This document shows positions 3,406-63,999 of a stretch of DNA of 64,000 bases, one piece after another. The notes beneath the pieces are model-generated. The model was not told the origin of the DNA, searched no databases, and was given only the letters and a program-made list of their open reading frames with translations. Origin of the DNA: Bilabrum cf. latius (taxonomy: Eukaryota); contig OZ237747.1 of NCBI GenBank assembly GCA_965178125.1, positions 558,001 to 622,000 of the forward strand. Direction: 5' to 3'. Position 1 is the first letter of the stretch, and every line of letters starts with the position of its first letter. The translations under genes and the position numbers were made by a program.

Positions 3406-3604
3406 TGTACATACGCTTTCAAACTATTTCTAGACGCAGCTGCCGCTTCGGAATGATTCTGAACCGGTAGAGTAGGCAAAACGACCAGATGCAGACTGCA
3501 CTATAGCTAGCGACCACCTTTGAGCCGCAGCTCCTGATCGAGGGAGGACCAACGAAGAGGAAGATGAAGGAGAGACAATCCTACGAACTAATCGCTGCAT
3601 CGGA

Positions 3605-6600
3605 ATGATTCAGGATGCCTGGTTTCGGAACTATGGGCAGTGTTCGTTCCACCTGCGGTTCCTCCGACCGCACTCATCATCATCTACAAATATATTTGGC
3701 GGGAATTCACTTCTTTCATGTAGCAGCAGCGGTATGAACCGAGCCATTATACAAGAAACAGCTAGATTTACTCGTGCCGCACACAGGCATCCGGCTGTAG
3801 TTCATTTGTTGCTTTCGTCCAGCCATGAGATCTCTGCGGCGTGGGGCAAGTATGGCAGAGGTAAGGACAGCCATTGGCACCAGCTGGGAGTAGATCCGCC
3901 GGCACGAATAGGACGTTATTGGTATCAACGGTAGGAGACTCGCGATTCTGTAGCTGATTTGGACCTGATTATGAGATGGCGAGTCAAGCAGGGAGTTGGG
4001 GAGCAATCTTGGCTCCCGCCATCCTCCAGCCATGACTTGCAACGGCAGCAAGCGAAAGGAATGATAAGCCGTGGGCATATCTGCATCTCTTCCATTGATG
4101 CAGCGGCGGCCGTTGCTCGAGATGACGCACGAGTGCAGGTACTTGACTGTGAGGTCGAGCAGCGGCGCATCAGCTTGAGCGGCCGCTTTGCTGCGCTTGT
4201 ACTCCAGCCGTTCGGTGACGATAGAGCTATTCTCTAGCTATGGTAGTGTGGGCTTCAGACGAAGCAAGCGGGCCTTTTATGGTCTGCAGGGAACGCGCAT
4301 CGGGCATGCTTCGCGAATGGCGGAGCACTTGCACCAAATGCAACGGCGGCAGGAGCATCGCACGCTGAGGCAAAATAGTCCGTAGTGGTTTGGTCGGAAC
4401 TATATCATGATATGCTTGACGGTTAGCTGAGGGCAAGATCCGTTCGCTGGAAGCAGGCGGCGCAGGATGAAGATGGTGGAAGCACCGGCATCGGGTCAGG
4501 CGCACTCGTGGTGCCTTCAACCACGCAATTTTTGTCGCAGTCACCCGCAGGCCGCCTGCTATTTGCGGACTGCTCGTCCAGCAAAGACGAAGGATCGCTG
4601 TTTGTGTCTCTGTCAGACCGCACGACGATCGAATCGTGGGTCGCCATTGGATCCAGGTTCGAAAGCGCGCGAATACGCCTGCAGCCGGCAGGCCAGGAGC
4701 AGCGGCAAGACAACGGCGCCCGCAGGATGATCCGACTGCTGACTCGATCAATTGGCGGCCAGCTATTCCCGGAATCGACGGACAGTCACGTGTACGCGCT
4801 CACAGACGTCCCGGCCAGGGGCTCCACATCATGGAATCGAGCCCAGGCTAAACGAAGCCCGGCTGATGCAGGTAGGTCAAGCACTGCAGATGCAAGCATG
4901 GACGCAGAAGTGGCTCGCGAGGCACTGCGTGAGGAGCGGGCAGTGTATGGTGGCGCGGCACCCTTGCGAATCGTGAGGGCTTCGTTTAGCCAGATACTTG
5001 GGAGCGGATAGGTTCACACTGTAGGCTGTCCCGCCCCCATAGGGTGCGATGATGATCTTGAGTACGCCCCAGGCACCGTCGATTCAATGCTGCCGCTGTG
5101 GGATTGGGAGGAGTTGCAGGTGGTTGGCACGCACGAGCAGGCGGCTGCAGACTGGCAGACGGTTGACTACGACTTGTACAGCCAGCCAGCCACCGATGCG
5201 AGCACGCTCACAACATTGAAGCAAGCAGGTGCTGACCGGAGCCGGCTGCGCTGCAAGCCTGAGGCCCGCCCACCTGTAATGGTCCAGTATCAGCTGTGTG
5301 GTCAAACAGGCCGCCCCCGTGTCATCGCAAGCACGCTACCACCGCACGGAACAGAAGCAGATAGCGATTAGCTACAAGTACGGCAGCTGCAAGCTGTCGA
5401 GTTGCCGTCGATGGATGACGCCGTAGGGATCGAAGCGAGGTCGAACGACGACCCTTCCTCGCCTGTGGTTCGCTACATCATCAAACGCGGGGCTGGCTAG
5501 CAAGTGCCAGTCGATGTGGTCCTCTATTGCGATAGTAGCGGTGTGCTACGCAACTGTTCTCTACCAATGACGCGCTCTTCGACGATATTCGAGAAGACGA
5601 GCACTACTGCAAACAACACTAGCTCGGCCAAACCTACAAGCTTGCTTGGCCGTCTAGCATCGGCAGTATAGAGCGTGCTTCCAAACAACGACCAAGATGA
5701 CGTAGAGCGTAACATGTCGCTACAGCCACCGCGACTGGGCCGTGCCAGCACCGTTGCAACCGTGCACAGCCATAAAGCCTCCAGTAATCTTTAGCCAAAC
5801 GAGCTGGAAGTCATCGCTGCAGATGCAATCCGAGGCCATACGAAGCGGTCGCCGAAGTCATTTCAAACGGAGTGGGTCGCGCGGTAGGACCTGCAGCAGG
5901 CACGGGATACCATACCGCCCACGCAGCTGAAGCTGCAGACGAGATACGAGTAGCCTCTCGAGCTTGCTTCTCGAAGGCTGTCCGTGCCTGTTCGGTACGG
6001 AGCAGAGAACCTTGACTTCGGGATGTACGAATCCCTGCTCGAAAGGAAGGGAGCCCTCGCACCAGAAAGCGTACCGATAACTGTGACTGGACACCCGGAC
6101 GCACTGTCTTGCTTTGAGGACACCTTGCATAGGGGCTGTACGTCGCCGGAGAGTGAGTATGGCGCGGGTCACTTCCCCGTGGCGGTTAGCGTGTACGGGT
6201 GCTACGGGGTGTCATTGAACAACAGCTTTGACGTGGGGATGCTTCCGTTCTACCTTCGAGGCGGCGTGATGGTGTACGCACACGTGCGCGGTGGTGGTGA
6301 GCGAGGGCAGGCATGGCACGCTGCGGGTCGTGGCCCAGTGGGAAAGGCACTCGCTGCACACGATCTGGCAGCTGTGCTACGTATTGCCAGTGCTGCATGC
6401 GGTGATCATTCGGTCGGGTTGGTGGCTGAAAGCGCAGGCGGGGTCTTGGCTGGCTGGGCGCTTGCTTGCAAGGCATCCGGCGTGCACTCCCACGCCTGGC
6501 TGCCACCACCAGCCGCACTGCCTGCCATAGAAGCTGCGTTCTTGAGTTGTCCGTTTGTCGACTTGGGAGGGGCAGCGGCAGCTCACCGTGATGCGGCCAA

Positions 6601-7096
6601 TCGTGACAATACGAACACTACGTGCGCTGCCGGTGGTGCTGGATACGAAGGTATCGCAGGGGATGCCCTCTTTGCCCAGGAGCTATCCGAGTGGGGAGAC
6701 CCTGCGGCCCCAGGGGGTCAAGGAAATGAAGCCTTCGAACTCCTGCGTGGCCTTTGTCCAACTTCGACAGCAAGGCAAGGAAGGGTAAACAAAGGCGCTA
6801 CAGCCGATGTGACCAGCCAGCCTCGCGTGGTGCTGACTACTGGCGAACTGGACCTGCGTGTGCCGGCCGATACGGTGCTGCGATTCGGTGAGGCACTGCG
6901 TGGCGTCGGCTGCAACGTGACGTTGATTGGAAATAGTGGGCCAGGGTCAGGCCATTTGAACGACAATGGGGCCATAGAGATCGCAGATGGCGCATCAGAG
7001 GTGCAAGAGAAGGCGGTGAGGTCGGCATTCCTGTCGGCCGTGCTGAGTCCTGGTGCAAGCCAAGCGCATTGGCCGAGAAGCGGTTTCTCGAACTGA
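3605..7096 (+). CDS. Prolyl oligopeptidase family S9A (oligopeptidase B/PREPL-like), about 1163 aa
   Basis: ORFs 3605, 3959, 4508, 5087 and 5984 share one frame, separated only by 12 TAG codons. Motifs YGCYG and HVRGGGERGQAWH; catalytic AESAGG (Ser), DLRVP (Asp) and GH (His). TGA stop. Confidence 0.85.
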
Positions 7097-13098: not shown

Positions 13099-15008
13099 TC
13101 AGCTTCCCCCGGGCCCACCGTGCGGCAGGGACACGTGCCCGGGCAGCGTCACGCCCTCACCGACGGCCCTCGAAACCGGCTCCGAGCTCCTGGCAGCCGC
13201 TGCCAAGCCCAACGAAGCCGCACCGCCACCGCTTGGGTCAGAGCGGGAAGTAGCGTCCTTCACCGTTCCTGCCTTGCTGGGCACCGCCTGCACCCCTGTG
13301 CCCTGGCTCAGGCCAGCCGCAGCGGCGATCGCAGGCGAGTTCTCTGCATCTGCCGCCGCCGAGCCACTCGCGCCCTCCTGCCCTTGGCCCCCAGCAACTG
13401 CGGCTCCGAGAGATGCTTTCACCGCGGGCGAAAGCACCCTGGACGGAGGCGACCGCACGTCCCTGTAGTTGGCCAGCACAACGCAGTAATCTCCCGCGAA
13501 CTCAGTGTGGCTCTTGTCGGTGAGTTTCCACCGCTGCGGATCTTCTCCCTGTGACACCGGCCCCAGCCCCGCCTGTCCCTGCCTCTCCGCCTCTTTGGCC
13601 ACCTCCTCCTGGCACTTGATGTACGGCTCCACAGGCAGGTCGGTCATCTCCTTGACTCCCTGCGCGTCGGCGAACAGGGTCAGGGTGAAGCGTCTGGGGC
13701 GGAACAGAGCCAGCACGGCCCGCACCAGAGGCCGCAAGGAACTTGCGCGAACGTTCGTCTCGAACGACGCGTAGCTGCAGTGCTTCTCTGGTGTCACGTG
13801 CACGGTCCAGTAGGAGCCGTCGAGCAGCCCATTCGCGCTGTACCCGCACGGCTCGAACATGTAGGCGTGGACCGTGCTGCCAGGGAGCACCGCCGTTAGG
13901 CCAGACCTCTGGGTCACGTACTAGGCCACTGCAGAGCTGGGGCCGGGGCAGGCCGCCAGTTTACCCAGGTCAGCGCGCGACTTGGCCTCCCCGGCCCCGA
14001 CCGCGGCGCCCTTCTCCTCTTCCTCTCGCTCGTCCGCGCCCTTGGGCTCGCTCCCCTCGCCCTCGCCCTCGGCAGGGGCCTCCTTGCTATCAGATTCGGT
14101 GGAAGCCGGACTGTCGCCGGCGACGCTTCCTTCTGATGCAGCCCCCGGCGAGTCTTCTTCTTCCTTACCGGATTTGGCAGAAGGCGCCTTGGCCTTGCTG
14201 CTCAGCTGCACACCGGCCTTCGCTGCCTCTTCCACCGCCTGGTCCTCGTGCAGCAGCCTGCTCATCCCGTCGCATATGTCAAACATCTTGATGTCTAGAG
14301 TCACATCCGTGCTCTCTGTGGGCGGCCGCTCGCAGTAGTCTGCGACGAAGACGACCCAGTGGTCCGACGTGAGAGGCCCGAGCACATGGGCGGAGCCAGT
14401 GGGGAAGAATCGGTGCAGGAAAGCGATCTGCGCGGGATCTAAAGAGAAGAGAATACTATACAATACAATGAATGGGTGAGGACAGGTATCAAGCGGCAAT
14501 CGCACACGCTATTCGTCGAGTGCTGATGGTGCAACGGCACCGACAATGCAGGCGAGCTGACTATCTCTGGCTCTCAACTGACCTCTTCGGTAGTGCTCCT
14601 GTGTGGAAATACCTGCTCCTACGGAAACAGAAAATCTTTGCGAGAGTATGCCACCCACTCAACTTCCATATTCTTGGCTGCCACCCGTTCCAGCAGCGGC
14701 GGCAGCATCCTGAGGAGGGTTGTCGTTCCGCAAGTCTTGGCGATTATTTTGTGCGAGTACACAAAGAGTGACGACTCGCTTAGCAAATATGCAGTACAGT
14801 CTTCATCCTAAATCTCTCCGAGTATTGAGCACTTCGCCTCATCGAGAATTGCTTGCCATTGGTCCTTCGAGATGCTTCGCATACCCTGCTTTGGCCCTTT
14901 GCTTGGCACAAAGTCAATTTCGAGATTCTTTTCCGGACCCTCGAAGCCAACCATTGCATCATCTGCCGACGATATAGCTGCGGTGCTGCCTGCTCCAGTT
15001 GATGCCAT
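13099..15008 (-). CDS. AMD1: S-adenosylmethionine decarboxylase proenzyme
   Basis: GFEGPEKNLEI, AYLLSESSLFVY (self-cleavage site), KTCGTTTLL, YSRKDFLFP*EQVFPHRS, intron 14428-14582, FEPCGYSANG, HVTPEKHCSYASFETN. In-frame TAG at 14808, 14619 and 13921; TGA stop. Confidence 0.95.
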
Positions 15009-15118: not shown

Positions 15119-15160
15119 TTAAGATATTCCCTGTGTTGATGATGGAAACGTCCTTCCCAT
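15119..15160 (-). promoter_or_regulatory. Candidate upstream ORF (MGRTFPSSTQGIS*) in the AdoMetDC 5' leader
   Basis: ATG at 15160 to TAA at 15121-15119, ending 110 nt before the AdoMetDC ATG. No other ATG lies in between. Confidence 0.35.
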
Positions 15161-15227
15161 GCAACAGCAGTTCGCTATGCTTGGAGTTGCCGTCGTGCCC
15201 TGTGGTGGTTCCGCAACACGATCATCA

Positions 15228-18148: not shown

Positions 18149-21100
18149 TCAAGACAATGTGGCACCATCGAGCGATGGCACCGTGCACACCCCGGCCGCC
18201 GTCCGCAGAGGCTTGCCAGCGTAGCAAGCCTGCTTGTCTCCATCCGTGGACAGCTCCGGCACCACATCCTTCCAAGGGTTCTTCTTCTTCTGAGGGTTGA
18301 TCTTCTCGTCGGGATCCGCTTCCGAGCCGTCGATGACAACCCGCTCTCCGATGGCAGAGCCCGCGGGCGGGTCCACGAACTCGACTCTGTCGCCCTTGTT
18401 GGCGCAGAGGACCATCCCCTTGGACGTGAAGTCGCCCATCTTGCGGTCCTTCAGGTTGGCCACCACCACGATCTTCCTGCCTTGCAGCTCCTCAAGCTTG
18501 TAGTGCTCCCTGAGGCCAGAGGCGATCGTCCGTGGCGCGCCCTCGCCTACGTCCACCTCCTCGCAGAAGAGCCTGTCCTTGTCGGGGTGCTCCCACACCT
18601 TGGTGATCTGGCCCACCTTGAGGAGCAGGCGGCTGAAGGCAGGCACGTCGGACCTGTCGGCACCCTTCTTCTTCTTGCCTCCGCCGGCAGCGCCCCCACC
18701 GGCGGCAGCGCCCTTACCCTTGCCCTTGCCCTTTGCCTTCTTCGCCTTGCCCTTGGAGGCATCCGAAGCAGATACTGCGCCACCCGCTGCCGCCTCGGAC
18801 CCGCCAAACCTGGACCTCCACTCCTCCACCTACTCGGGCTGGATCTGCGTGAAGATGGGCCGCGGCTTCATGCCAAGCTTGTGCCCCTCCGGGATACACA
18901 CCTCGAACTTGTCTGGAATGTCCATGTGGGGCAAGCCGAGCTGGTGGCACACCCGGTCCGTGAATCCAGGCATGTAAGGCTCGAAGATGGCGGCCACGAG
19001 GCGCACCAGGGATACAGAGTATGCGATTGCAGTCGCCGACTCGTCCATCTTGCCCTGCTTCTTCTGCGATGCACGGTTGGGATACTTTGGGGTAATACGG
19101 GGAGCAGTGGCGGCAGCACATGGCAAAGCTCAGCGGACACGTTGATACACCAATACCAACGGAAGAAGCACAGCAAGAGCAATGGTCTCAGACACTTCCA
19201 AGGAATAGGATGAATATCGTCATAGATGCGTTCGCCTGGCGGGGCAATACGCTCCGTGCGAGATATATCGTCACCGACCGAAAACACACAACACTAGTGG
19301 GAACCTTGCCACAATGCTGCTGCTCTGCCCGCTGGCAGAGCGCTGCAAGCAGCAAAAAACCGACACAACAAGCCAGCAAACCGGCACAGCAAGCAAACCG
19401 ATACAAGCAAAAGTCACACTCACGAGGTCCCAGGGCGCCTTGTCCTACAGGTACGTGTTGCCTTCCCCGGAGACGAGGAGCGCGAGGCCGAGGGCGTGCC
19501 TGAGTTTCTGCTTGCCGACGTACTCGTTGTATTCTGCCAGCAGCTGGTTCACCCTGGTCTCAAGCGCCGCCTCCCTGTCCCCGGGCGCCGCCTTGATGCC
19601 GGGCACGGCCCCCTCGAACTGGGTGTACGACAGGTTGAGCGCCCTGTTGACGAAGTTGCCGAGGTTCTTAAGCAGCACGTTGTTGACGTTGTCGGCGAAG
19701 TCGCTCCAGCTGAACTCAGTGTCGCTGTTCTCAGGCCGCTGGGAAAGGAGATAGAACCTCCACACCTCGGAGGGGATGCCGGTCTCCTTGGCAGTGTCGC
19801 CAAAGACTCCCACGCCCTTGCTCTTGCTGAACCTGCCGGACTCGTACTGCAGGTACTCGGTGACCGAGAGGTCGCCCACCAGGGTCCATTTCTTCTCCGT
19901 GGCAATCAGGGAGCCAGGGAACACAACCGAGTGGAAGGGCACGTTGTCCTTGCCCATGAACTGCACGAGCCTCACATGGTCGGGGTTCTGCCACCAGGCC
20001 TTCCACGCCTCCGCGTCGAGGCCCCTGTCCTGCAGGTAGCACGAGGTCATCGAGATGTACCCGATGGGCGCGTCGAACCACACGTAGAACACCTTTTCGC
20101 TGAACTTTTCCATGGGGACTGGAGTGCCCCACTTGAGGTCTCGCGTGATGGGCCGGGGCTGCAGGCCGGCTTTGAGCCAGTTCTGCGTGATGGACACGGC
20201 GTTGCTCGTCCATCGGCCTGACTCGAAGCACTTGTTCAGCCACGCACGAAGCCGCTCGTCCTGCTTGGGCAGGTCCAGATACATGTGCTCTGTGTCCCTC
20301 ACTTCCAGCTTGTGCGCCTTGTCCACCATGCACCTGGGAGACTTGAGGTCGGTCGCGTTCAGCAGCGCGTCGCAGCTGGGGCACTGGTCCCCTCTCGCGT
20401 CCTCGTGCCCGCAGTTGGGGCAGATGCCCTCCACAAGGCGGTCCGAGAGGAACTTGTCGCAGCCCGTGCAGAACACCTGCTGGCTGCTCTTCTCCAGCAA
20501 GTTGCCCGCTTTAAGGCAGTCGGTGAAGATTTCCTGTCCAATGTCTGTCTGTGGCCAGCCCTTGCTGTCCTTGGGGGTAGCGTGGCTCGTGCGGCCGAAG
20601 TAGTCGAACCGGATGTCAAACCAATCGTAGATTGCCTTGTGCTTTGCATGGTACTTGTCGCACACCTGCAGGGAATGCACACACGAAATAACATAAATTG
20701 AATCTTACTGCATGAACTATCTGGAAAACCCAGCAGCAGATGGCAACGGCCTGATGCCAAGCGCAATTGCGGTTAGCTTACCTCTCGAGTGGTCAAACCC
20801 TCCTCCCTAGCTTTCGTCTCCGTTGCTGTCCCGTACTCGTCAGTACCGCAGATATATAGCGCATTTAGGCCGCGCTGGCGGCACCACCTAGCGTAAACAT
20901 CGGCTGACAGGACACATCCAATTAGGTTGCCAAGGTGTGGGACATTGTTGACGTATGGCAAGGCACTTGTGATAAGAATGTTATCACGTTCCTCAGCTGG
21001 CAGTACAGGTTCGCTTGGCTGCGATTGATGAACAGGATAAAATCAAGCTCGGATTGCAATGCGCTAATAGATCAGCCAAGCAGGGGGAGACAGGTGCGTA

Positions 21101-28062: not shown

Positions 28063-31000
28063 TTACTACGGGCACTGCATGCTGTAGGATGTGCGGTCAG
28101 GACACATGGGATGAAAGCTACCACTGGCAGGCCCTGCTCCTCCCCCTGGCACTCCCGCCCCTTCATCCGTGCATGTCTAGTTGACCACCTGCGCGAGCCG
28201 CGCGACCGCTAGTCGGTTATCAAGGTGACAGGCCAGCGAGAGTTCACTGCTCGTTTCGGCAGCGTCCTCGATTACCAGGAGGTAGGAGTCAACCCCTGGC
28301 ACGGGGGCCAGGAAATACGACCCCCGGAAGCACGTGGTCCTCACAGTTCCTGCCACCACCCCGCCAGCGGCTTGGATAGCAGTCGGTAGAAACTCAAGAG
28401 ATCGGACCTGCTGCACGCATCCGAACGTGTTGTCGAATGGATCAAAGTCACCGCGCGTGCGAGCAAACGTATCGGCTTCTGCTGCAGTCTACGTGATTCC
28501 ATCCAGCGTCACCGGGACTCTGTCTTGATCACGAGTCACGCTGCAGCTGCCCTGGTAGTCAATGGAATCGACCCGCCTCGCGTACCCGTGGCGCAAGAGG
28601 TCCAGCATCACTGGACCCGCCCTTTCGCCTAGACTCACGCTGGAGTAGTCTGCCTCAGCGGCGGCTTTAAAGTCTACAAACCCCGGGTCCAGCTGCAGCA
28701 GCCCAGCACTGTCCACCAGGAAACACCTAGTCTCACAGAAGAAATCCCCGTCCAGCCATCCCTCGGGGCAATCGTAGGTTTGGTAGCAACCCCTGTCCCC
28801 AATGGCATGACTGTCGGCCCACTTGAACATGGTCTGGGAGAGCATCGTTTGGAAGTCCTTGTAGATGAAATCGATCCCAGCTACGCCTTCCAGCTCTGTG
28901 GAAGAGCAGTGGCCTCCGTAGCACCTGCCGGACACGCACTATGCGCCAGAGGTGCAGGCGATTAGAGAGCCATTGTCTCTCCCCGCAAATACTGGGGATG
29001 CCAGCGTGCTGATTCTGTGGCCGGATGCGGCGTCCAGATACGGGGTAGTGAGTCCCAGCCTCCCTTGGCTGGCCAGTCCACGGCGGTACCAGGGCCTCGC
29101 CATTGGATCAAACGCATGCGGCATGCGGGTGCCGGGATAGATCCGGAACACTCCCTGAACTGTCGAAGTGTGCCGCCAAATGACATCACTCAAAGTACCG
29201 TCCAGTGTTGCCGCTGCGATCCACGCAGGCTCAACTGCATGGGTCAGAGCCACGTCAGGGCGCACCTGCTTCTACGTGCGAAAGTCAGCACTATCGGTGT
29301 CCACGCTGGCGCCAGGAACCTCTGCAGATGCGTTTGCCAAGCTGCATCCTGCATTTGGGTACTGGCTAGTAGTGCCTGCGTAGCTTGCTCGCATAAAGGC
29401 ATCGATGTAGGTGAAAGAACGGTCTGCAGTCACGTCCACAATGTACTCCTCTGCCTTACAGAAGGCAGAAGGTGCCAGCTTGTACGCGGAGTGCCGAGTG
29501 CTTATCTACATACTGGGGTAGAGCCTGTCGTCCCTGCCCTTAGTCTCAATGTGCAAATCATCGATTCGTGCCTGTGGAATGCGGCTGGAAGGATCTTGGT
29601 ACTTGTCGAGTCGGTGGTAAAACTCATCACCAGCTTGTGCCACCCTCCCGGCGTTGCCGTCCCCTGTGCCCACTGCCACGCGAAACTGCCCGTCTTCAGG
29701 GCCAAACACGTACGCGAAGGAAAAATCAGTGCCTGGAATGTTGCTGAAATAGTAAGTCTAGTCGCGTTCAACCACCGTGTTTCCATCCAGCTTGTCGCCC
29801 TTCGGAAGCCTCCTCTTCATGTTCGGGATGGTAACTTGGCCCGTGCTGCCAGTGAGCATGGGTGCTCTGACCTGCCGCATGAAGGCGTCGAACTGAACGG
29901 TGCCTGGTGTTGCCTCTAGCTATGCCACGTCGGGGTAGATCGGATCCGACCTAAGCTGGCTAGAGGGCCGCAGCAGAGGATGGACAATCGCGCGGCCTTC
30001 GCCGTTGATCAAGAAGGCATAGACCGTGCCCCACTTCTGACTCATGAGAGTGTTTTCCGCCTCTTGCAAGGTGGCATCAATGCCCACGATGCCCTGAAAC
30101 TCCTTTCCGATGTATACGGGCGCAGAGGCAGTCATGATGAGGCCAAGCCCGGAGGTGTCGATGTACGGGCGGCTCAGAATCGCCGTGCCACCTTCGATCG
30201 ATTCGCGCAGGTAGTCGAAGTACGGCCTCAACGCATCAAACACCGTGTTTCCAGACCACAGAGGAAGGACTTGTCCATGCGTGTCGCAAGCACCATCAGA
30301 AATCACGGTAGGTCCGCTGGGCCCCTGCAGATTGATAGCGAAGACGCGATGGCCCATCGATCCCACCTATCGCGCCACGTCTCTCATCTACTCGGCATCG
30401 AGGCCGGCATTCTTGCTTGAGTAGTAGTCGATGCACACCTCGTGCTCGTAGCACGTTTGGTTACCATCTGCGTTAGTGTAGCAAGTCTGCTCCATGTGGC
30501 AGTCTGTGTGCGAGTACGCCTGCACGCTGTTCGTATCGAGGTTGTCCGAATCGGTGATGAGCACCACGAGCGTGTCGCAAGCTCGAGTGCTGCCAAGGAG
30601 CAGCCTTTGAGTGAGATCGATTGCCTATGTCCAGTCCTGCTTCCCGTCGAAGATGCTTGGATTCAGCTTGTCCAACACTTGCTTCTTGTTCGCAGGAGTA
30701 GCAAACTGCACCGTATCTCCGCCGCACCCCAGTGCTCTAGTGCGCTTGGACCTGAATGAGATCTGCGACGACGTGCACACAGGACGGCCACATGATGCAT
30801 AGTGATAGGAGCCTTTCATGCACACCACATTAAATCTATCTTGCGGCGTGAGTGAATCAATGACAGCACGAGCTGCATCGAGCGCGGGTCCGCTCCTCCG
30901 GCTCATGCGCATGCTTGTGGTGCAGTCCATTAGAATTACCACATCTTTCTGCGACGAAGATGAACCGACGTACCACGGTCTTGTCAGCGGGTTGTAATCC

Positions 31001-33435
31001 TCCGTGAAACCAAAGTAGTTTCGCGCCCGGCGGCGGCCAGGCATAGACCGGAAAGTCCCCGTTCGGTGTCCCAAGTACGCCCAGCGCACGGCAGGGTCGG
31101 CCATGTGTGGGGCGTAAAGCTCTTCATCAAGGCTATTTGTTGCCCACGCAGCAGCCAAAGCCCCGGTCGAGGGGTTTGTGGCCGCCTGACTATTGGGGTC
31201 ACGATCAGCAAAGCTGGGGATCTTGACGGTCGAGTGGTCGAAGCTCACCCGCCGCTGATAGCGAGCGTCGAACCGCTCCCCGGGTACCTCTAGAACGATG
31301 TCGGTGTCGTAGAACGAAGGCCTTGCTACCATATTTTCCCGGGCAGTCGCCTACAACTTTGTGGCAACATCGGCTGCAAGCGACTGTACTAGCTAGATCT
31401 TGCCGTGAAAGAAGGTGGCAAGGCTGTCACGCACGGACTCGACCAGCTGGGTGCCGTTCCGCAGCTCAGTGGTGTAATTGGCAGCATCGTATATTGCCTA
31501 CACTTCGTCACGGCAAAGCTACGTGTCTGCAACAGAGTTCAACTTGTTGCTGATCGCTGATGCCAAATCTCTGGAAAGGGCAGGTGTAAATGACGTGGCA
31601 CTGGCATTACCCATCACACTGCACGCCACGACAGCAGCAATGACCACTGGCAATGCATGCCTCGACCAACCACTCAAACGGAGACCAAATGCACCAGACT
31701 ACGGTTCATAGGCACAGCCAAAGCTGGAAGCGGCAAAGAAGCCTGCGACCAGTATCGCAAAGCCACAGCTGACACTCCGCGCGATCTAGCGCGAGCCATT
31801 GGCGCTAGGCACGTTTCCTGAGAATACCCGGTGGTTAGCTTCCACCCCAAAGCATGTGGCCTTAGCACGCGCTTCTAGATCATTCGTGTTGCCATACCCC
31901 GACAAAGGTGGCTCATCGTGGACAGTGACAGGGGAGAAACCCATGGCCTGGCACAATGCGGTGCCGTTGCCGAACTGCGCTGTCACTGTGTCTTCCAGCG
32001 GGCCTGGCACCACAGCATTCTCGCACGCGCGATACATAACGTTGCAGTACCCCTCGCACACGCGCACCTGCTGCTGCTCGACCTCATGCCCAAGGAAGAA
32101 ATCGGCCTGCCTGGAGGAGCAAGGGGAGCAGGTTAGGTAGCTAAACGCAGCGGCGCAGTCCCGACCTGCTTGCAGCAGGCGCGGCGGGGCCTCGGTCATG
32201 GCCACCACTTCCGGGTTAGTGCAGCATGTGTTGTCTTGGAACAATCCACAGCCGCTGAGCTGGTAATTTGGAGCGGACACCCTGCCTCCACCGATGTAAG
32301 GACACGCGCGGCTCGACAGCTACCGACCTCGTGCGTCTGCTGCTGCGGCGAGCTACCCAACCTGCAGTGTTTGCTCCTGCACGGCCCCAACCGGCGGTTC
32401 GTACGCCTCCAATTTGCACTAGCCGTGATATGTGTGTGAGCTAGCTGAGACTTGAGGGGTACAGAGTGCGAGAAACACAACTGTAATTCCAGCGGCAACG
32501 GTAGCTTGGGGGCCTCCGGCGGAGTGTGGCGCTGACGACGACTGGCCCAGAAAGGCCCCCCTAGCAGCTGAGGCAAGCAGTCCTGCAGTGACAGCTGCAA
32601 AACCAGCGACTACACAGAATGAAGAACGCTGGTGCGTCGCGCGATGTGCGGATGAGTCGTCACGATGGTGTGGGAACAGCTCGTCGCCGGGCCTGACACC
32701 AAAGCACCCATACCGCTCGCCGGGGGTGCCCTCAGGATCGCCACCGGCTCCGGATGAGTCATCCACCACGGTGTATCCCTGTAGAGTACACATCAAGGAA
32801 CCAGACCCGAAAGAATCGCGCAGCGTCTTTCCCTTCCAGTCCGCGTTGCCGCAGACGTCAAACAGTGTATCGCACATCGACTTGCAGACCGCGACCTGCC
32901 TTCTCCTGAGGTCGTAAAAGTACTGGCTGTCTGGAGAACAAGGCCAGCAGTACATGTAATTGAGAGCTCGGAGGCAGTCAGCGCTTCTAGTCTTCAGCTG
33001 CGCGCGAAGATACAGACATGGCAGTGGCGATGATCGATCCGGACATACCGATACTACACGCGAAACAGTGATCGCCCGACGGATTATATTTGTCATCAGG
33101 GAATTCACTCAGTTGGTAAGGGGTGCGTTCAGTTTCATCTTGAGGTGGTAGTATGATTTCATCGGAGTGAAGGTGCGAGAATGGGCCGGAACTTCGCGGC
33201 TCACACTCACCGGTGACGAGCCGCTAGGCAAAAAGACTTGCATTTCAGTAGAACTACAGCAAGCGCTCGCGGAGTACCATTGTGAACAATTGCCTGACGC
33301 GAGCGGGGCCGGGGCTCTGTTGTTGAAGAATGGGCAAAACTAATCGTCCGCACTCTCTTCGTAGCTCAGCCAAAAGCCTTCAGATCGCGTTAAGAGTAGT
33401 TGAACAATAAGATGATACGCAGCACCGTGCCACAT
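28063..33435 (-). CDS. Secretory protein with two folate-receptor-like Cys-rich domains plus VWA and Cache domains (CACHD1/alpha2-delta-like), about 1719 aa
   Basis: Signal peptide MWHGAAYHLIVQLLLTRSEG and intron 32998-33210. One frame with 21 TAG codons. Motifs YNPLTRPWY, KDVVILMDCTTSM, SRPYIDTSGLGLIMTASAPV, FDPMARPWY, TTPYLDAASG. Ends TAG-TAA at 28068-28063. Confidence 0.85.
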
Positions 33436-34187: not shown

Positions 34188-34552
34188 TGCACGTGCCATT
34201 TCGTGGCTAGCCAACAACCAATACACATCTAGATAGCAGCTTCAATTGAGTGAGACCCGATGAAGACGCTGTGAACACGGTCAACAGTGACCAAATCCGC
34301 TGGCTTTGCCATTTGAATCAGCCTTATTTTGTAGTACCAGTCATCACCGCAGGGTGACACGTGCACAGGAGATCCGCCACTGTCGCTTTCCTGCCTTATA
34401 TAGGGAAAGATACGCATTTCTAAGCGTACTCTTGCATTTAAAACAACTTAATCCTGGCATTTAGCAGGGGATCGTCTGGGTTTGGGCCAACTTTGTAAGG
34501 TGGCGCGTGCCATCCCCAGAGCTCCTGCACTTGTCCACAACGCACGACTCGG

Positions 34553-37500
34553 ATGGCACTTCGCATGGTTTAGGCGCACGGGGCGCCGCGCGCGTCATGG
34601 CCAGAGCGAGTTTACACAAATCTGTAGCAGGGCCTGTTTGGGCTGGGATTTACCTTTAGCAAGGACGTGGCTGAGGATTCCAGGTGGATGTTCCTGCTGT
34701 TCGCCGCCGTCGCAGAGATGCAGACAATGAGCTTCGTCCTCAACGACTCTGGTATGCTACCATGGCGAGCATCAAGGGTCTTTGCACCTATTGTGTCGAG
34801 CATTAGCTTCCTCGGCGAGCCGTTTGATCCCGAGCGTAACCCTACGGGTTACTTTGTCGTCCTTACTCTAGGAGCTTCTTACGTGGCGGCTTTTCTTGCT
34901 CTCGCCGGCTCGGCTGCGCGCAACTTCGTCTTGGAGCAACCCCAGGCTCCGTATCTTATCAAGGCGCTACGTTTGGTCGCCTCCGCATCCACAGGAGTCC
35001 TCTTCCTGCCTATTTCGGGCTTCCTGCTTCGGGGCGCGTCGTGCCCCAACGAGGACCGCCAGTGGCTGCGCACTGGGATTGATTGCGGTTCGCCGGCGCA
35101 CATGGTGCTCTCTACGATATTTTCCCTCCTCACGCTCGGCTTCAGCGCGCTCTCTCTCTTTGTCGCCGCCGTGTTCGTGGACCGACGGCCTGACTCACCT
35201 GCGTGGGGGGCTATGAGCACCGGCAGGGCGGCCGTGATAAATTTGTTGATGCGACTAGGACTTTCCTTCTCCTTCTCCATCCTGCGGAATTAGGTTGTGG
35301 GTACGACCGGCTTTTCACTACTTTTGCTGTTCCTCGGGCTGGCGAAAGTGTACCAGTACGCCGTGTGGGCCCCCTACACGCACCGGGACATCAACTCCTT
35401 TTTTGCCGCCTCAGGAGCTGCATTTTCCGTCGCGTCGGGCAGCCTGCTGGTCGCGCAGTACGTGGGATCGGAAGCTGCTTCTATGGGTATCCTAGCGGCC
35501 GTCCCGCTTGCGGCCATCGCGACATTCAACGTCGTGAGTCGGAGACTGGATGCCGTGGGCAGGCAACCGCTTCAGAAATGTGCGTCTGTCACAGACATGC
35601 ACCTGTGGGGCAGGCGGCGGCTGCAGAGGCGGGCTGTCTTCAAGCAGGTGCTAGAGCGAGTGAGCACTGATGGGGAGGCATACCAGTCGCAGGTGCACGT
35701 ACCTGGCAGGCGCGGGGGAGGTGACGGGCTAGAGGCCAAGGCCGGTGCGGACTTGGATAGCGGGGAGCAGTACTCGGGTGGCGGTGGGTCAAGTAGCAGC
35801 GTGACGGGGGGAGGAAAAGACTCGGACACCGAAGACGGTGCAAGCATCATGTCTGCCGCCCCGGAAGGGGACGGTGCATCAGTCGGATCATCGCGCCGGC
35901 GGGTGGGGAGGGGGCACCGGGAGGCCGCGGGGGGCATCCCGGGGCGGCTTGGGGGTGCCGACTACCGCGGAGTGCATTTGTCGGGCGCCGAGCATCTTAC
36001 GGCGGAGCAGTTACGTGCAGAAATCGTGCTGCTGGAACAGGAGGCGCGAAGAGCCTACGAGGGGGCAGCGGAGACGTTTTCCACAGACGAACAGGCCTTC
36101 ATCGGGCTGTCAATCTTCGAGAGGTCGACCAGCAGGTACAGGTACCGCGAGTGCGTGGCGCTGTCGCAGGTTCTCAAGTGCTCCCCGCCTCTCGACTCGA
36201 GGTACTACATCGCCCAGCGAGTGAGGGACATGCGTGAGTCGGACGGCGTGGGATTGAGCTCAGTTGATCGAGTGCTCTTCGACTCTGCCCTGCGAGAGAC
36301 CTCTCAACTGAGGGTGGCGGCGTACCAGCTCCTGGTGCGCATGTTCACGCACTTAACCGTCGACTGCCCCGACCTCTCGGACCTGCTCGATACCAGCGTG
36401 GCTCTGCATACCACGGTGGAGCGCGCCGATGAGGCCTATCGCAGGCTCTTTAGCTTCCACAGCGACAATGCAACCCTGCTACGACAGTATGCCTCCTACC
36501 TTTCCGACTTCCGCGCTGATCAGACCAGGGTCACCGAGCTTCTTAACCAGGCTCAGAGGGTGCAAGAGCAGTCCCGCAAGCAGAAGTAGAAGGTGCTGAG
36601 GGCGGTCAAGTTTGGTGCCGTGCAGTAGGACTAGAGCCTGTTCGACGAGTCCGCCGCCATCATCACCATTTCTGCAGCTCCGTTCCGCCTCGGGCAGATC
36701 TTGCACGCCTCCCAGTCGGCCTGCCGCCTCTTCAACTTCGCTCCGCACCAGATCATCGGGCAGAACGTGAGCATCATTGTCCCTCATCCCCTGGACACCG
36801 TACACAACCAGATGCTGCAGGCATTCTCCAAGCGCAACCGCCGCAGTCGGGTTGTGGGACAGACCCGCCTGCTCTTCGGCCGCCGCAAGGGGGGCTCCAT
36901 CCTGCCCATTTACCTGGCTGTCAACGAGGCACCCCCCGACCAGGCCACAGCAGAGCCGCGCATCTCGGCAGAGATCTCTCAGGTCACCACGGAGCAGAAC
37001 TTCGTCCTATTTGGAGGATCGCAGCAGAACTTCTAGATCTATTCTGCAACCCCCGGATCTCTGGCCCTTATTGGCGTGGAGCCAGAGGACCTGGAGTAGG
37101 ACGTGATCAGCATGAGCCAGTACTTCCCCTCGGTAGAGTCCACTTTCCGGGAGCATGTGCAGCTGAGCACAGAGCACATCCGTGCGGTGGCCAACACACC
37201 AGGCGTGGTGGACCTCTTTCAGTGCCTGGGGAGGGCAGAAGTGCTGCGCAAGCACGCACAGGGGCACGGAGGACGAAGCAGGGTGAAGATGATGGGGGAA
37301 GTGGAAGCTGGTGGTCGAAATGCTGGTGCGGGTAGTGAAAGGACCAGGGATACTGAGTAGGCCCGCCACCATCCAAAGCTCCGGAGAGGAAGCAGTTCCT
37401 TAAAGGATCTTCGAGGCGGAGCGGCAGGAGGTGGAGTGCCCGTTGCTAGTGGCAGTTTTAGGTCAGGAGGAGGGGGGCACTTTGTTCAGGGCAGTGGAAA

Positions 37501-40500
37501 AACAGCCCAGATCAAAGAGGCCACTTCTGGTCCCTGCGCGAATGAGGCACTACTCCGTTCCATGCAACACCTGCACAAGCCAGGATTGATCCCTGTGCGG
37601 ACCAGGAGCGGAGAGAACCTGGTGGTAGGGTAGGTGCAGGTAGCTCGGGTGTCCATCTTCGGCACGCTCAACATCCTGGGCTGGCACGCGGTGCGCAAGC
37701 CGCAGGCAGCAGCTCAGATGAAGCGGGTGGTATCTCTCGTGGGCGCGGCAAATAAGATGCACAGCAGCGACGAAGAGAAAGGTACAAAAGCGTCTTCGAA
37801 TGATGTCGGAGATCTGGGCATCACTGTGCCAAGCCGGTTGGAGGCTGTCAGTCCTATCGTTGCTAGAGAAGGGGCAGGTGGGGCCTCAATTGTCTCGAGT
37901 GCGGCTGGAGTTGAAGGAGGCGCGCGCGTTGGCAAGACGCCAGACTCTGGCAGGTCTAACCCACAGGATAGAACCGCCAGGTCTGTCGGTGCAAGCCTGC
38001 CCGGGATGGTTGAGGAGGCGGATGTGGATGGCCATGGGGCAGTGCAAGGGCGGGAAGAGGAGGAGCTGTTGAGGGGCAGTCGCGGAAGTAACCAAGAAGA
38101 TCCTATGCGCGTGATTTCCTCCTTTGGAACAATGAAAGAGGGGATGGTAAGCAAAACCAGCAGAAGTGGCAGTGGAGATGAGGACGATGGAGAGGAAGAG
38201 GAGCGTGGAACCGGCCACAGAGCGCCAGGGTCGCGTGCTGTAGCTCAGGGTGAACGGGTCACACTGGCAAGATCCAGATGGCAGCAGGACGACGAGTTGG
38301 TAGACAATGGTGATATAGTGGCGCAAGAGGGTGACGAGGAGGCCACTGAGGCGGAAGAGAAGGGGGCAAGATGGAGTCGTGGAGCAGGTGCTCAGGGTGG
38401 GCGGGCCCTGCTCAGGGGCGCCCTGAGGCCGCACCACCGCCTTGTTGAATGGAAGCAGGGCAAGGAACCTGACAGCCCATCGCGCAGGTTGAGCGAAGAC
38501 GGGCAGTTGCTGGCTGCATCGGACAGCAAGCCCTCTCGCATGGTGGACATGAGTGAGGAGGCGCCTTTGAAGGGGCGCAGGAGGGACAAGTTGGACTCGA
38601 TGATGACCGACGGAGGTCGGCATCACGATGACGCTGACCCGGGGCAGGCAACGTCCGAGCATGGGGCGGCCTCCACTAGTGGCAGGAGTGCTCTAGGATC
38701 GGCTATGGCCATGGCGGGGGGATCCACCGAGTCCTAGATTGCCATCTCCAACAGGTTCTTGGGCATCCAGGCCATTTTCGTCATCATCATGGGGGTAGTG
38801 GTCACCGTTTGGACTCGCAACTTCGTGACCGTGCTCAACGAGATGACGAACGCGGCCTGGCTGGTGGGTCGCAGGCAGCTGGCACTCCTGTCGGCAGAAA
38901 ACAAGCTCGTATGGATGGCCAACAGGAATGACATCCCTTTCCTCTCCCACTACGAGCCCACAATTGACGGTAGGACCATCCAGCCCGCTGCTTACCTACA
39001 TGATGCAGCTGGGCCAGGCCGCCGCCTGAATAACTACAACCTGACGCTCGTCAACCGTGAAGCCCTCCACGACCCTATCGCGCTGCAGGGTCTCATGCTC
39101 ATAGACGCAGACGAGGTGCAGGACGCCAACGGAAGGCTCTACGTCGCTATTGACCAGGGCGGCATCCCAGACTATTTCGAACTCACGGCCAAGCTGCCCA
39201 TCCTGCTGCCAGAGGAAACGGGAGGGGGCAGTCAGACCAAGACGGTGGCCGAGCAGCTGCACGAGCTGGTGGCTGCCTACCGCCGCGTTGCAAAAGGAGC
39301 CGTCGCAGCAGTCACCAGGCGACTCCGTGACGTGCAGTTTGTGATGCAGAATGCGGAGGAATTGGACCTCATGATGTCATTTGCCACCAGGAGGCACAAG
39401 GTTCGGCTGGAGACGGACATCGAGGAGTACGGAATGCAGGTGCTGCTCTTCGGTGCCGTGACCACGGGGATCATGTTGCTGGTAGGTGGGTCGTCGTTCG
39501 TGGTGCTTTTACGGCAGCTGGGCTTGAAGACGGAGAGGGTTCTGCAGGTGTTCATGATGATCTCGCAGGCCCAGGCCAAGCGACTGACGCAGTACTCGCA
39601 GCGGAGTCTGCAGGGTGTGCTGAACGAGACGCAGCAGATTCTGGAGGATGAGAGCGGGGAAGAGTCGGATGGGCAGGATTTTGATGATGACGCGCTTGAG
39701 GACGGAGGATTAAGGGTCGGGTTTGCGGAGAGTGATGCGATGCTGGGGATGGACGGTGCGTCTGGGATCTATGGAGGAGCAGGAAAGGTATCCGGCAAGA
39801 TGGACAGCGGGGTCAGCCCTTTGTCTGGGGGCAGTGATAAGCCTTATCTGCAACTGCAGTCGGGGCTCAAGACATCTGAAGCCAAGGGTAGCGCAGTAGG
39901 ACGAGCGGCTCCACACAAGGGTGTGGGGGTCGCAGAGCGTGGTGACAGCGTGTACGTGGGCACCAAGAGCATGCGGCAGGCACGCCAAGACATGCAGCAG
40001 CGGGCGCTCGACAAGGCCAAGGCAAATCTCCGGCCCTACTCAAATTCCTCCACGTACGTGTGCAGGTCTATCATTTGCCTGTTGCTGCCTGTATCTACGG
40101 TGCTGCTCTTCGCCGGTGCCTTGTTGTTGATTCAGGTAGAGCTCGGGCGCGACATTGGGACGCTCGTGAAGAGGGTTGTGGCGGCCCAGTCGCTGCAGGG
40201 ACGCACACAGCTGCTATCCACCAGGATGCAGATCATGGCTGAGGACGTCTACAAGCTGCACCACGCTCCTGATACCATCGATACCGACGAGGTCCGCGCC
40301 AATATCGAGCGGCAGGCCATCAAGATTGCCACGGGCACTCGCATCATCGAGCAGTTGACCTCGATGGTGACGTTTGGCGGCGAGGCGAGCGCTGACATGT
40401 TCCTCTTTGCTGACGGAGAGCGCGGTGAACTGCTGTATAACACCACCCTGAGGCATACCATGGTGCGCGGGATCAAGGAAAAAGGTGGGTTGCCAACGGA

Positions 40501-41491
40501 GAGCGGGATCTACCACGTGCTACATCGCGACGGCTGCGCTCCTGTCAACTACCTTTAGGTTGATATCGAGAGCATCGTGAAGCAGACCACCAAGCAGGCC
40601 ATTGTGCCGCCCACCTCCCCTGCACATTACGTGGAGCAGGTGATGAGGGACTGCTATGCGCTGCAGGATGGAATCGTTGCGGAGGGGCTCGTAGCAGCCG
40701 TTACCTCGTGGACGTTTGAGGCTCGGGACTTTGCGTCGAAGGTGTATGGAAACGTGACGGGGGGCGGAAGGGTGCAAGACGTGCTAGAGGAGACAGACCT
40801 CAATACGCCTCGGTTTCTCAGGGAGATACTCCTTGGGGATGAGGATGCGGATACAAAAGATGAGCTTGTCGATACTGAAGGGGGAGGTGGGTGGTCGGGC
40901 CTTCTGCGGAGGGCCTGGCGGGGCCGGGTCGACAAGGCAGAAGCGGAGGCAGCGCGAGCCATCGAAGAAGCGCAGCCGAGCCTCTCGGTCGCAAGAGCCA
41001 GTCGATCTACCCGTGGACTGCAGCAAGCCGAAATCGGATCAGCTGACCTGCCAGTTGGTCGCAACCGTACGCTTGGCTCCCTGGACCTTGCGGAGTACTG
41101 CCTGTACGAGGCGGACAAGCTGCGGGATATGTTCTCGCCCTACATGCAACATGCAACAGATGTGGCCCACGCGCAGTTCTACATGAGCATGATGGCTCGT
41201 CTGCACGATACGGGCAGGAACAGCGAGATCGCGACGTGGGTCTTCGCCGGATTCTTCACGGTCACCACGCTCATTTACATGGCGCAGCTCAAGCTGCTGC
41301 AGCTGCCCCTGCAGTCTGCCCGTCAGATGCTGGTGCTGCTACCGCAGCCGCTACTTTAGACCCACATTGCACTGCAGGCTGCCGTGAAGGAGGCTACGAG
41401 GGAGATGCAGAGCGGGGCGGGGACGGACTTGAAGTCCGGTTCGGGCTCAGAAGGAGGGGCACTAGGGGGTCAAGCGGGCATGGGGGTGTGA
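34553..41491 (+). CDS. Large multi-pass membrane PAS-domain protein, TmcB/TmcC (tiny macrocysts)-like, about 2312 aa
   Basis: Nine ORF-track fragments lie in one frame, joined only by TAG (13 in total). N-terminal TM bundle, TPR-like DNATLLRQYASYL, PAS domain ACRLFNFAPHQIIGQNVSIIVPHPLDTVHNQML, further TM segments. TGA 41489-41491. Confidence 0.85.
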
Positions 41492-56500: not shown

Positions 56501-56768
56501 TCAATTGTATGTTTGAGATCGGTTTCGCCGCCCCGAGACGAGACGTGTTCGACAGCATCCTCGATGATGCGAGCGCGGGACAGTGCGTCGGGGTCATCGC
56601 TCTGTGCGATTCTCCTGCCATGCCTTGCGTGGATTGAGCGTCAACCGATTGAGATAATGTACCGCCCAAGCGAGAGCATCGCGCCATCACTACGCAGAAG
56701 TAAGTAGTCATGATTTGGAGTACCTGACGTACAGTGACCTGTTTGCGCTTGCCGAGGGCCATGCCCAT
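53541..56768 (-). CDS. Cell-surface protein: ELWxxDGT-repeat beta-propeller, Pro/Ser/Thr stalk and multi-TM C-terminal domain, about 1075 aa
   Basis: Repeats HGNELWASDG, GTELFRYNG, GRELYWYNG, VADIEPGSWSSEP; stalk (PSVTPS)n at about 55200-55360; TM region DVVSD...EDAVQLVVQ. TAG at 55857, 55623, 55563, 54729, 54648 and 54132; TGA stop. The start is uncertain. Confidence 0.75.
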
Positions 56769-57069
56769 GCTTGGAACAGGGATAGCCGTAGAATAAATCG
56801 AAAAATAATGATAAGTAGATGCGGACGAGGGGTAAATATTGTTAAAGTCGGCCAACATTGTTTTTCTCCCGTTGCGTCGTGCCCTGTTCCGGTTTGACAC
56901 AACCTCTTCGCCGGGCCGGCGGTGTGTTGGTTGTTTCTGCTGGGCGGTCCAGTCAGGTGTTGCTTTGTGCATTGTCTTGAATAACATTCTCCTTCTTCAT
57001 ACCTGGTGAGTGCGTGCTAGGAAAAGCATTCATGCTGATGCCAAGAGCTTCAAATGCATATCAAGCATG

Positions 57070-63000: not shown

Positions 63001-63999
63001 GGCCTCGCCGTCGCCGGGCCTGAACAGCGTCAGCTATGTCCTGTTTTCACTGTCCCTGACACCGGGGCTTGTGCCGCCCTGGCTGTTTCTGCGACGGAAT
63101 CCGAGCACACCGAAGGGGGCGCTCATGGTTACATTGCGGCCGATGAGCCCGCCTTGCCTGCCCTCGGTGCATTCGATCTGCACGCTTCCTGCAGCGTGCA
63201 TCCGCCACTGCTGCTGCTCCAAGCCCTAGATTGCCTCGGATGGCAGAGATGACACCAGCAAGCAGGCCGGCGACGGATTTGATGCCTCGGGCGTCGCGGG
63301 TCCACGACTGCGAGCACTCTCGCTTGGCTCACCGCTGGCTACTGAAGGTCGCACGCGCTGCCACACAAGAGCCTCGAGAACACGCTTGTACTGCTCAGCA
63401 GCAGCTGCCAGCCTCTTCTCAAGCTCTGGGTCAGTCTTCTCTGCAACCGCCTTGCCCTTTCCTTTGCCTTTCCCCTTTCCTTTAGGTTTGTCAGCCTCTG
63501 CCCTTTCCTGCAGCTCCGCAGCACCGGGCAGCCCGGCAGCTTCATTTGCATCCTCCTTGGCCTTAGCAGCAGCCTCCAGCAATGCATCCACTCCCTCTAT
63601 GGATCCAAGCTGCTACAGAAATACTCTGTCTTGCTCTAACGTCTCTTGCGCAAACGCGCTCGCGGATGTAGCCATGCCTCGAAGGAGAACAGCGGAACTG
63701 CCGGGACCGCCGCGCCTTTCCACGCGGGCGCGTGGCACCGGCTTGTTCGCTACCACAATCGCGCTGCCGGTCAGCGGCTCGCGACCCACATCGATTCGCC
63801 ATCCCTGCGATCTCAGCGCCGCGATCTCCGACAGTACCCCCCTGCGGGTCAGCCTACGTCGGTGGGACCGGAGGCACAGAGGCACCTGAAAGGCAGGCGC
63901 ATCCTTCGCAGCCTTGGCCTGGTGCGCTACCTGCCGCGCAGCAGCTGCGTTGGCGTCGAGTGGGATGATGCCCCACGGCCGAATCCTCCGGGGCCCCAT
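57070..63999 (-). CDS. 5'-truncated protein of more than 2300 aa, SPAG17/PF6-like flagellar central-pair protein (tentative) with a C-terminal PapD/ASH-like domain
   Basis: One frame from the window edge to TGA 57070 with 12 TAG (63613, 63226, 63034, 62506, 62473, 60868, 59401, 59071, 58915, 58813, 58759, 58489). Beta-hairpin DG/NG repeats; C-terminal VRPRQVVLGSV...VQVRNHS...GPIAPGAS. Confidence 0.65.

Follow-up and report, generated by a model that had tools for sequence, protein, structure and literature searches.

In-frame TAG codons in an S-adenosylmethionine decarboxylase gene point to a nuclear code in which UAG encodes glutamine

The gene for S-adenosylmethionine decarboxylase (AdoMetDC) in the 64,000-nucleotide stretch analysed here (the window; G000:C13:558001-622000 of a 48.6 Mb assembly in 111 contigs, window GC about 59%) is crossed by three in-frame TAG codons, which raises the question of whether this enzyme is made by read-through of its own stop codons or whether TAG is simply not a stop in this genome. 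The sequence data argue strongly for the second answer: AdoMetDC is very probably an ordinary gene in a nuclear code in which UAG specifies Gln, with UAA and UGA as the sole stops. At the sequence level, TAG is in frame genome-wide, falls on invariant Gln positions, persists in spliced contigs and stays off gene ends.

AdoMetDC lies on the minus strand of the window as two exons and one intron (Table 1). The first-pass annotation, made from the letters alone, had reported the three TAGs with their flanking peptides, all of which we recovered on that strand; the intron was absent from its account. The gene has two candidate starts, both in frame (ATG at 15008 and ATG at 14954), and the profile alignment which that annotation had proposed gives an in-frame match to Pfam SAM_decarbox (PF01536; E 4e-47 and 1e-39), with the motifs FEG, LSESS, TCG, PCGYS, HVTPE and YASFE all found. 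As in the eukaryotic pyruvoyl S-adenosylmethionine decarboxylases of the same family (human 1jl0 and 1jen), the fold-defining motifs and the ESS site are intact; unlike those enzymes, the protein has an insertion of about 100 low-complexity residues and a long C-terminal tail, both in exon 2, and three of its Gln codons are TAG. The earlier proposal that each TAG accounts for exactly one residue, leaving no room for micro-introns, is borne out at TAG 1 and TAG 2, where the alignment to 120 homologues and to the human proenzyme stays in register on this assumption, while TAG 3 adjoins the low-complexity insertion and is gapped there in the multiple alignment but ungapped against the human alpha chain. 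TAG 1 had been described as standing just before the self-cleavage site; it lies 12 codons upstream of the pyruvoyl serine rather than adjacent to it, and nothing points to a special role. Since the columns at the AdoMetDC TAGs are variable, this gene alone cannot tell which residue the codon specifies. The leader contains a short upstream ORF, which ends in Gly-Ile-Ser-stop, an ending we take to be like that of the mammalian polyamine-sensing upstream ORF; its ATG sits at the edge of the transcript contigs.

Table 1 Features of the AdoMetDC locus and other TAG-containing frames of the window
Feature	Position	Strand	Evidence or remark
Upstream ORF, 13 codons, TAA end, in AdoMetDC leader	15119..15160	-	X6 and X8 contigs end at 15159, X7 at 15176
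Coding portion of AdoMetDC exon 1 (beta chain, first part of alpha chain)	14583..15008	-	Pfam PF01536; zero differences in spliced contigs X6, X7, X8
TAG 1, read as Gln	14808..14810	-	Column variable: S in 78/120 homologues
Glu-Ser self-cleavage site within LSESS, intact	14772..14777	-	Alignment with human proenzyme
TAG 2, read as Gln	14619..14621	-	Column E31/Q23/D17/H11 among 120 homologues
GT-AG intron, 155 nt, between TAG 2 and TAG 3	14428..14582	-	Exactly skipped in X6, X7, X8 contigs; kept in X5
AdoMetDC exon 2, TGA end at 13099	13099..14427	-	Continuous in spliced contigs
TAG 3, read as Gln	13921..13923	-	Opposite Lys of human AdoMetDC
Methionyl-tRNA synthetase, in-frame TAG	19445..19447	-	Kept in spliced contigs
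Methionyl-tRNA synthetase, second in-frame TAG	18830..18832	-	Kept in spliced contigs
Frame, 1190 codons, peptidase S9 domain; 12 TAG, 0 TAA/TGA	3524..7093	+	
Frame, 1681 codons, folate-receptor and Cache domains; 20 TAG	28066..33108	-	
Frame, 2330 codons, TmcB TPR and PAS; 13 TAG, 0 TAA/TGA	34499..41488	+	
Frame, 1151 codons; 6 TAG	53544..56996	-	
Frame, 2309 codons, no Pfam match; 12 TAG	57073..63999	-	

The TAGs are also present in spliced sequence. We compared contigs from four of eight runs that hold most of AdoMetDC (X9-X17, which hold small shares of it, were not counted), and took X6, X7 and X8 as transcript-derived from their spliced joints alone, no run being recorded as RNA. These three contigs, which come from two studies, skip the predicted intron exactly and carry all three TAGs with 0 other letters and 0 gaps; the X5 contig of a third study, which retains the intron, agrees with them at every TAG. 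Counting the two in the gene for methionyl-tRNA synthetase (MetRS), five TAGs are thus unchanged in spliced contigs from two studies. Since spliced and unspliced contigs alike keep them, error, editing and splicing can all be dismissed as explanations of the TAGs, except that minor edited forms would escape, because contigs leave out rare variants. The earlier argument against a pseudogene also stands, the catalytic motifs being intact and the gene single-copy: a second, TAG-free copy had been named as the finding that would overturn the reading, and all three PF01536 matches in the genome proved to lie at this locus.

AdoMetDC is not alone in its use of TAG. When TAG is read through, the window yields frames of 1,151-2,330 codons with 6-20 TAG each and no TAA or TGA, and in-frame TAG is found also in PRP8, eRF1, glutamyl-tRNA synthetase (GluRS) and many GTPases. 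Across the genome, 12 of 28 matches to the dynein AAA_6 domain contain stops, and these are 20 TAG, 0 TAA and 0 TGA; under the standard code, the pattern in AdoMetDC and the dyneins is far beyond chance. Eighteen dynein pieces totalling 42,235 codons have 180 TAG among 2,006 Gln-type codons, and a random sample of 18 segments of 10 kb plus the window has 127 among 1,479 (CAG 1160, CAA 192), with TAG present in 33 of its 54 coding segments, so that TAG makes up about 9% of Gln-type codons genome-wide. The base following TAG has the same distribution as that following CAG, with no preferred next base, and TAG takes a larger share where GC3 is lower (rho -0.82, n = 18). UAG would on this evidence be a minor synonymous Gln codon, commoner in genes of weak codon bias. 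Two individual sites may be mentioned here: the gene for cytosolic GluRS (L250, G000:C15) carries a TAG just ahead of the EFSRLN motif, within a conserved stretch, and a kinase-armadillo-repeat frame with a long Gly-Ala repeat (L240, G000:C11:500001-510000) has a TAG where its sister repeats carry Gln. A further feature of the window is a pair of near-identical, inverted aldose 1-epimerase genes with a common 3' flank (21787-22917 on the minus and 24002-25381 on the plus strand).

The codons that end genes give a complementary picture. Of 30 GTPase loci, 10 were uninformative and 20 end in a prenylation motif that is followed by TGA (16) or TAA (4) and never by TAG; dynein ends (n = 9) are TGA in six cases and TAA in three, PRP8 ends in TGA and eRF1 in TAA. 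Among these 31 homology-defined ends there are thus 23 TGA, 8 TAA and no TAG, a result with a probability of 0.001 if TAG accounted for 20% of stops, although at a share of 10% TAG would be missing from 4% of samples of this size. A weak coding-potential scan of 54 segments for TAG-terminated genes had 20 of them running to TGA or TAA. The single candidate for a TAG end in the random sample turned out to be an off-frame repeat, and was discarded as an artefact. The frame at 28066..33108 has a TAG directly before its final TAA, to be read either as a terminal Gln or as a tandem stop, and occasional terminal use of TAG may therefore occur. UAA itself does not behave as a sense codon, in that no TAA lies inside the 28 dynein matches and TAA ends 8 of the 31 genes.

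Which residue is inserted can be inferred from alignments, and these point to Gln. An initial tally over 120 inner-arm dyneins, which represent one subfamily and over-counted Glu, gave Q 14, E 6 and other 8 at the 28 TAG columns with at least 90% conservation (a larger proportion of Glu than at CAG columns, 19 of 290). In a second tally, based on 270 homologues (the top 25 per gene) for the 18 dynein pieces, the four pieces with orthologues gave Q 12 and E 1 at TAG columns with at least 80% conservation, where the controls gave Q at 38 of 44 CAG columns and E at 84 of 91 GAG columns; over all 18 pieces, TAG columns were Q 23, E 5 and other 14 (n = 42). The Q:E ratio at TAG does not depart from that at CAG/CAA (p 0.1-1.0) and differs sharply from that at GAG/GAA (p < 1e-12), and over 141 TAG columns Gln is ahead of Glu by 73, of Leu by 244 and of Tyr by 285 log-likelihood units. 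The same answer comes from invariant positions: of 18 small-GTPase loci, nine write the G3 Gln as TAG and nine as CAG/CAA, four of the nine TAGs directly follow a splice site, such that the frame survives only if the TAG is kept as coding, and a TAG in eRF1 falls at human position 44, which is Q in 116 of 118 homologues. The proportion of TAG at the G3 site (loci L088-L117) is far above the genome share.

A candidate decoder is present. A tRNA gene with anticodon CUA (G000:C23:907607-907679, minus strand; 69.8 bits) has a normal cloverleaf, is single-copy in that a DNA search with it matched itself only, and lies on a contig that also bears TAG-containing genes. Nine hits of a pattern search for CUA and UUA anticodons included no tRNA(UUA), leaving tRNA(CUA) as the sole suppressor; of the 780 candidates from the general tRNA search, 63 were scored, and the list of tRNAs is hence incomplete. 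ARAGORN labels the gene 'Pyl', by its anticodon. Of 31 further nuclear tRNAs obtained from the genome, tRNA-Tyr(GUA) is most similar to tRNA(CUA), agreeing at 12 of 15 positions of the acceptor stem plus position 73 (all others at most 6) and at 10 of 14 of the anticodon arm (Gln-CUG 9); no pair among the 231 compared has a better stem match than these two (10 of 12 positions), a rank shared with the two Lys tRNAs. The variable loop has 5 nt and the D arm resembles those of Glu and Gln(UUG); the discriminator base, like that of the genome's tRNA-Gln(UUG), is G73 and not A73. In a comparison with phage tRNAs, the top score among the matches listed was a tRNA-Gln, and the majority were tRNA-Arg. 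The gene has U35, A37, G10, G2:C71 and G73, which are among the bacterial Gln determinants given in PMC9976931, while it is without the U38, G36 and G3:C70 of the bacterial set and retains the Tyr-type C1:G72; for eukaryotes, the same source gives A73, C1-G72, G34 and U35 as Tyr determinants, and its Table 1 has no validated Gln determinants.

One glutaminyl-tRNA synthetase (GlnRS) was found in the genome, and we infer that tRNA(CUA) is a Tyr-derived or mosaic suppressor which is now charged by this enzyme. Charging would be aided by the five Gln-type features together with the loss of the TyrRS determinants A73 and G34, and the tRNA would read UAG while leaving UAA unread, since A does not pair with C34. 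Mutants of supF tRNATyr that insert Gln provide a precedent. Amber suppressors made from other tRNAs are likewise described as being charged with Gln (PMC9976931), and the Gln-inserting amber suppressors of E. coli treated there (from tRNAfMet, tRNATrp and tRNASer) would share with tRNA(CUA) a non-Gln body, U35 and changes at the acceptor end, although those are engineered or selected bacterial mutants, whereas the one proposed here would be a natural eukaryotic case. Another possible tRNA recruitment was seen at L039 and L046-L048, which comprise copies similar to tRNA-Met(i) but changed in the anticodon loop, and a tRNA-Pro(UGG) with a body closely like that of tRNA-Met(i).

The release factor also carries unusual substitutions. 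The genome has one eRF1, a second match to the eRF1_1 domain being pelota instead. The protein keeps GTS, E55, NIKS, S70 and the Y, C and F of YxCxxxF, and it shows S60V (in TASNIKS), K130H (inside YxCxxxF) and TKAD in place of ARGN before GTS; V60, H130 and the T, A and D of TKAD occur in none of 118 homologues. Position 69 is, by the predicted exon joins, itself a UAG codon, where 117 of 118 homologues have Leu and none has Gln, so that this site taken alone would suggest UAG = Leu. In yeast, eRF1 L69A is described as giving more read-through at all three stops, slightly more at UAG (PMC4381064), and the eRF1 of a rhizarian with UAG = Leu bears L69A (PMC5304391). S60V, L69Q, K130H and the change from ARGN to TKAD may together make eRF1 a poor reader of UAG. 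The stop-recognition domain of this eRF1 contains two UAGs, at the end of exon 2 (L053:1417-1420) and at position 69 (L053:1585-1587; G000:C35), a possible feedback on termination.

How do other explanations fare against this evidence? The first-pass annotation had taken the three TAGs as calling for read-through in AdoMetDC, and a programmed event confined to this gene, for instance as a polyamine sensor, could draw on the upstream ORF in its leader and on translational control, which is established for AdoMetDC mRNAs. The gene, however, uses TAG at the genome-wide rate of the reassigned Gln codon, 3 of its 20 Gln-type codons being TAG (P(≥3) = 0.24-0.27 under the genome's own usage), the TAGs stand in variable columns, with G, G and T as the next bases, and the same codon without a favoured next base recurs in MetRS, GluRS, PRP8, eRF1, dyneins and GTPases; we therefore consider a gene-specific mechanism extremely improbable. 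We give just as little chance to RNA editing or tiny introns that would take the TAGs out, and to assembly errors or pseudogene lesions. Minor edited forms may have been missed in contigs that drop rare variants, but the spliced contigs have neither other letters nor gaps over the three TAGs, an independent unspliced contig agrees with them, and the TAG columns are Gln-type rather than Trp-type in a genome with a single, motif-intact AdoMetDC.

Alternatives that accept UAG as a sense codon deserve somewhat more weight. It could serve as both sense codon and stop depending on context, an option in keeping with the frame that ends TAG-TAA and with the conserved GTS, E55, NIKS, S70 and YxCxxxF residues of eRF1; the complete lack of TAG at the 31 homology-defined ends, and the collapse of the lone sampled TAG-end candidate into an off-frame repeat, make such a code unlikely, though the least unlikely of these alternatives. 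About half as probable, in our estimation, is that UAG is ambiguous or encodes another residue, whether Tyr through a Tyr-like tRNA, Glu, Leu or pyrrolysine. The Tyr-like acceptor and anticodon stems of tRNA(CUA), the minority of Glu columns, the Leu column at eRF1 position 69 and the ARAGORN label would each favour one of these, yet Glu, Leu and Tyr all fall far behind Gln in log-likelihood, the catalytic G3 Gln is encoded by TAG in nine GTPases, and the tRNA has G73 for A73 and has lost G34, both of them Tyr determinants according to PMC9976931.

With UAG = Gln as the preferred reading, the closest known parallels are other nuclear codes in which UAG alone is reassigned to Gln, as described for Iotanema spirale (PMC5304391) and for Hartmannula sinica, Trochilia petrani and Protocruzia tuzeti (PMC11687900). 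Common to Iotanema, the three ciliates and the present genome are UAG = Gln, UAA and UGA as stops, and in-frame UAG at conserved Gln positions. The settings nevertheless differ: the main stop is here UGA (23 of 31), whereas the five recoded phyllopharyngean ciliates of PMC11687900 use UAA to end 86.9-98.3% of their genes, the GC-rich composition contrasts with that low-GC, UAA-dominated background, a candidate tRNA(CUA) is at hand where the accessible text of PMC5304391 and PMC11687900 identifies none for Iotanema, H. sinica or T. petrani, and eRF1 position 32 keeps T, as opposed to G in Iotanema. The rhizarian exLh (PMC5304391) resembles our case in reassigning only UAG and in a change at eRF1 position 69, but there UAG = Leu and the change is L69A, while here the residue is Gln, position 69 is itself UAG, and S60V and K130H are added. 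In the UAR = Gln code (NCBI table 6; many ciliates, ulvophytes and hexamitins), UAG is also read as Gln via tRNA(CUA), from which the present code departs in that TAA stops 8 of 31 genes, is absent inside dynein frames and has no UUA tRNA found for it.

The organism appears, on a one-gene placement, to be a bicosoecid-like stramenopile related to Cafeteria. The best named dynein match is to Cafeteria roenbergensis (64% identity), and a dynein tree (39 rows, one gene, quick search without bootstrap) places it as sister to the Cafeteria clade with an SH-aLRT of 100. The code change would, in a stramenopile, have an origin independent of Iotanema and the ciliates. Among the metagenomic dynein loci listed, at least 80, none shows the TAG-only pattern, and at least 27 carry both TAG and TAA, the ciliate type; the four closest of those listed have 0-1 TAG in 3,700-4,750 codons, and the closest (L118), within the Cafeteria clade, has 0 TAG in 3,706. 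With a TAG-free dynein in the Cafeteria clade and no TAG-only locus among the matches listed, the change is lineage-specific among the sequences sampled. The mitochondrial contig (G000:C111; L049-L052; 38.4 kb, 24% GC) has UGA = Trp, and nearly all of its long frames end in TAA; mitochondrial UGA = Trp is shared with Cafeteria roenbergensis (PMC6972860) and Cafileria marina (PMC6723347), for which the accessible portions of the two papers describe a non-standard code in mitochondria only. No report of a nuclear reassignment in a stramenopile or bicosoecid was found in the freely accessible literature, and the accessible parts of PMC13524828, PMC12152300 and PMC12153298 name no stramenopile nuclear case; with this coverage, a prior report in print or in a database annotation is possible. 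A second 18S rRNA gene (L057, G000:C95:6099-7900), 79% identical to that of the C12 rDNA array and located on a 17.9-kb repetitive contig, probably stems from another eukaryote in the assembly.

Mobile elements carry the codon as well. The genome has 28 matches to protein-primed polymerases of Polinton-like elements, and in two AT-rich (35-37% GC) polymerase genes (L251, G000:C12:912949-914379; L252, C22:753827-754438) TAG is the only in-frame stop. The frame of the first extends over 1,189 codons with 24 TAG against 16 CAA/CAG and no internal TAA or TGA, and Polinton-like elements thus appear to follow the host code. A potential host with TAG = Gln would therefore exist among organisms related to a known giant-virus host.

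One could also speculate on how these parts belong together, although the combined account is tentative, and we hold it to be rather less probable than not. It would be the first nuclear code change in a stramenopile, in which a duplicate of tRNA-Tyr acquired the anticodon CUA, gave up A73 and was captured by GlnRS, eRF1 lost UAG partly via residue 69, whose own codon is UAG, a circumstance that could lock the code in, Polinton-like elements adopted the code, and such lineages become candidate hosts for giant viruses with TAG = Gln. If true, the tRNA route would be one not yet described in eukaryotes, and UAG at residue 69 could make the synthesis of eRF1 dependent on suppression.

Few codes give UAG and UAA different meanings, the cases described in PMC11687900 being a rhizarian, Iotanema, Scotinosphaera and a few ciliates. 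The genome studied here would add an independent split in a major eukaryotic group, in a GC-rich, UGA-dominated setting unlike that of the ciliates. Annotation under the standard code would cut short many of its genes, as the 33 of 54 sampled coding segments with TAG indicate. How a release factor can give up UAG yet still recognise UAA is an old question, and a 48.6 Mb assembly that offers a single tRNA(CUA), a single eRF1 and relatives with the standard code would make it directly testable, through S60V, L69Q and K130H.
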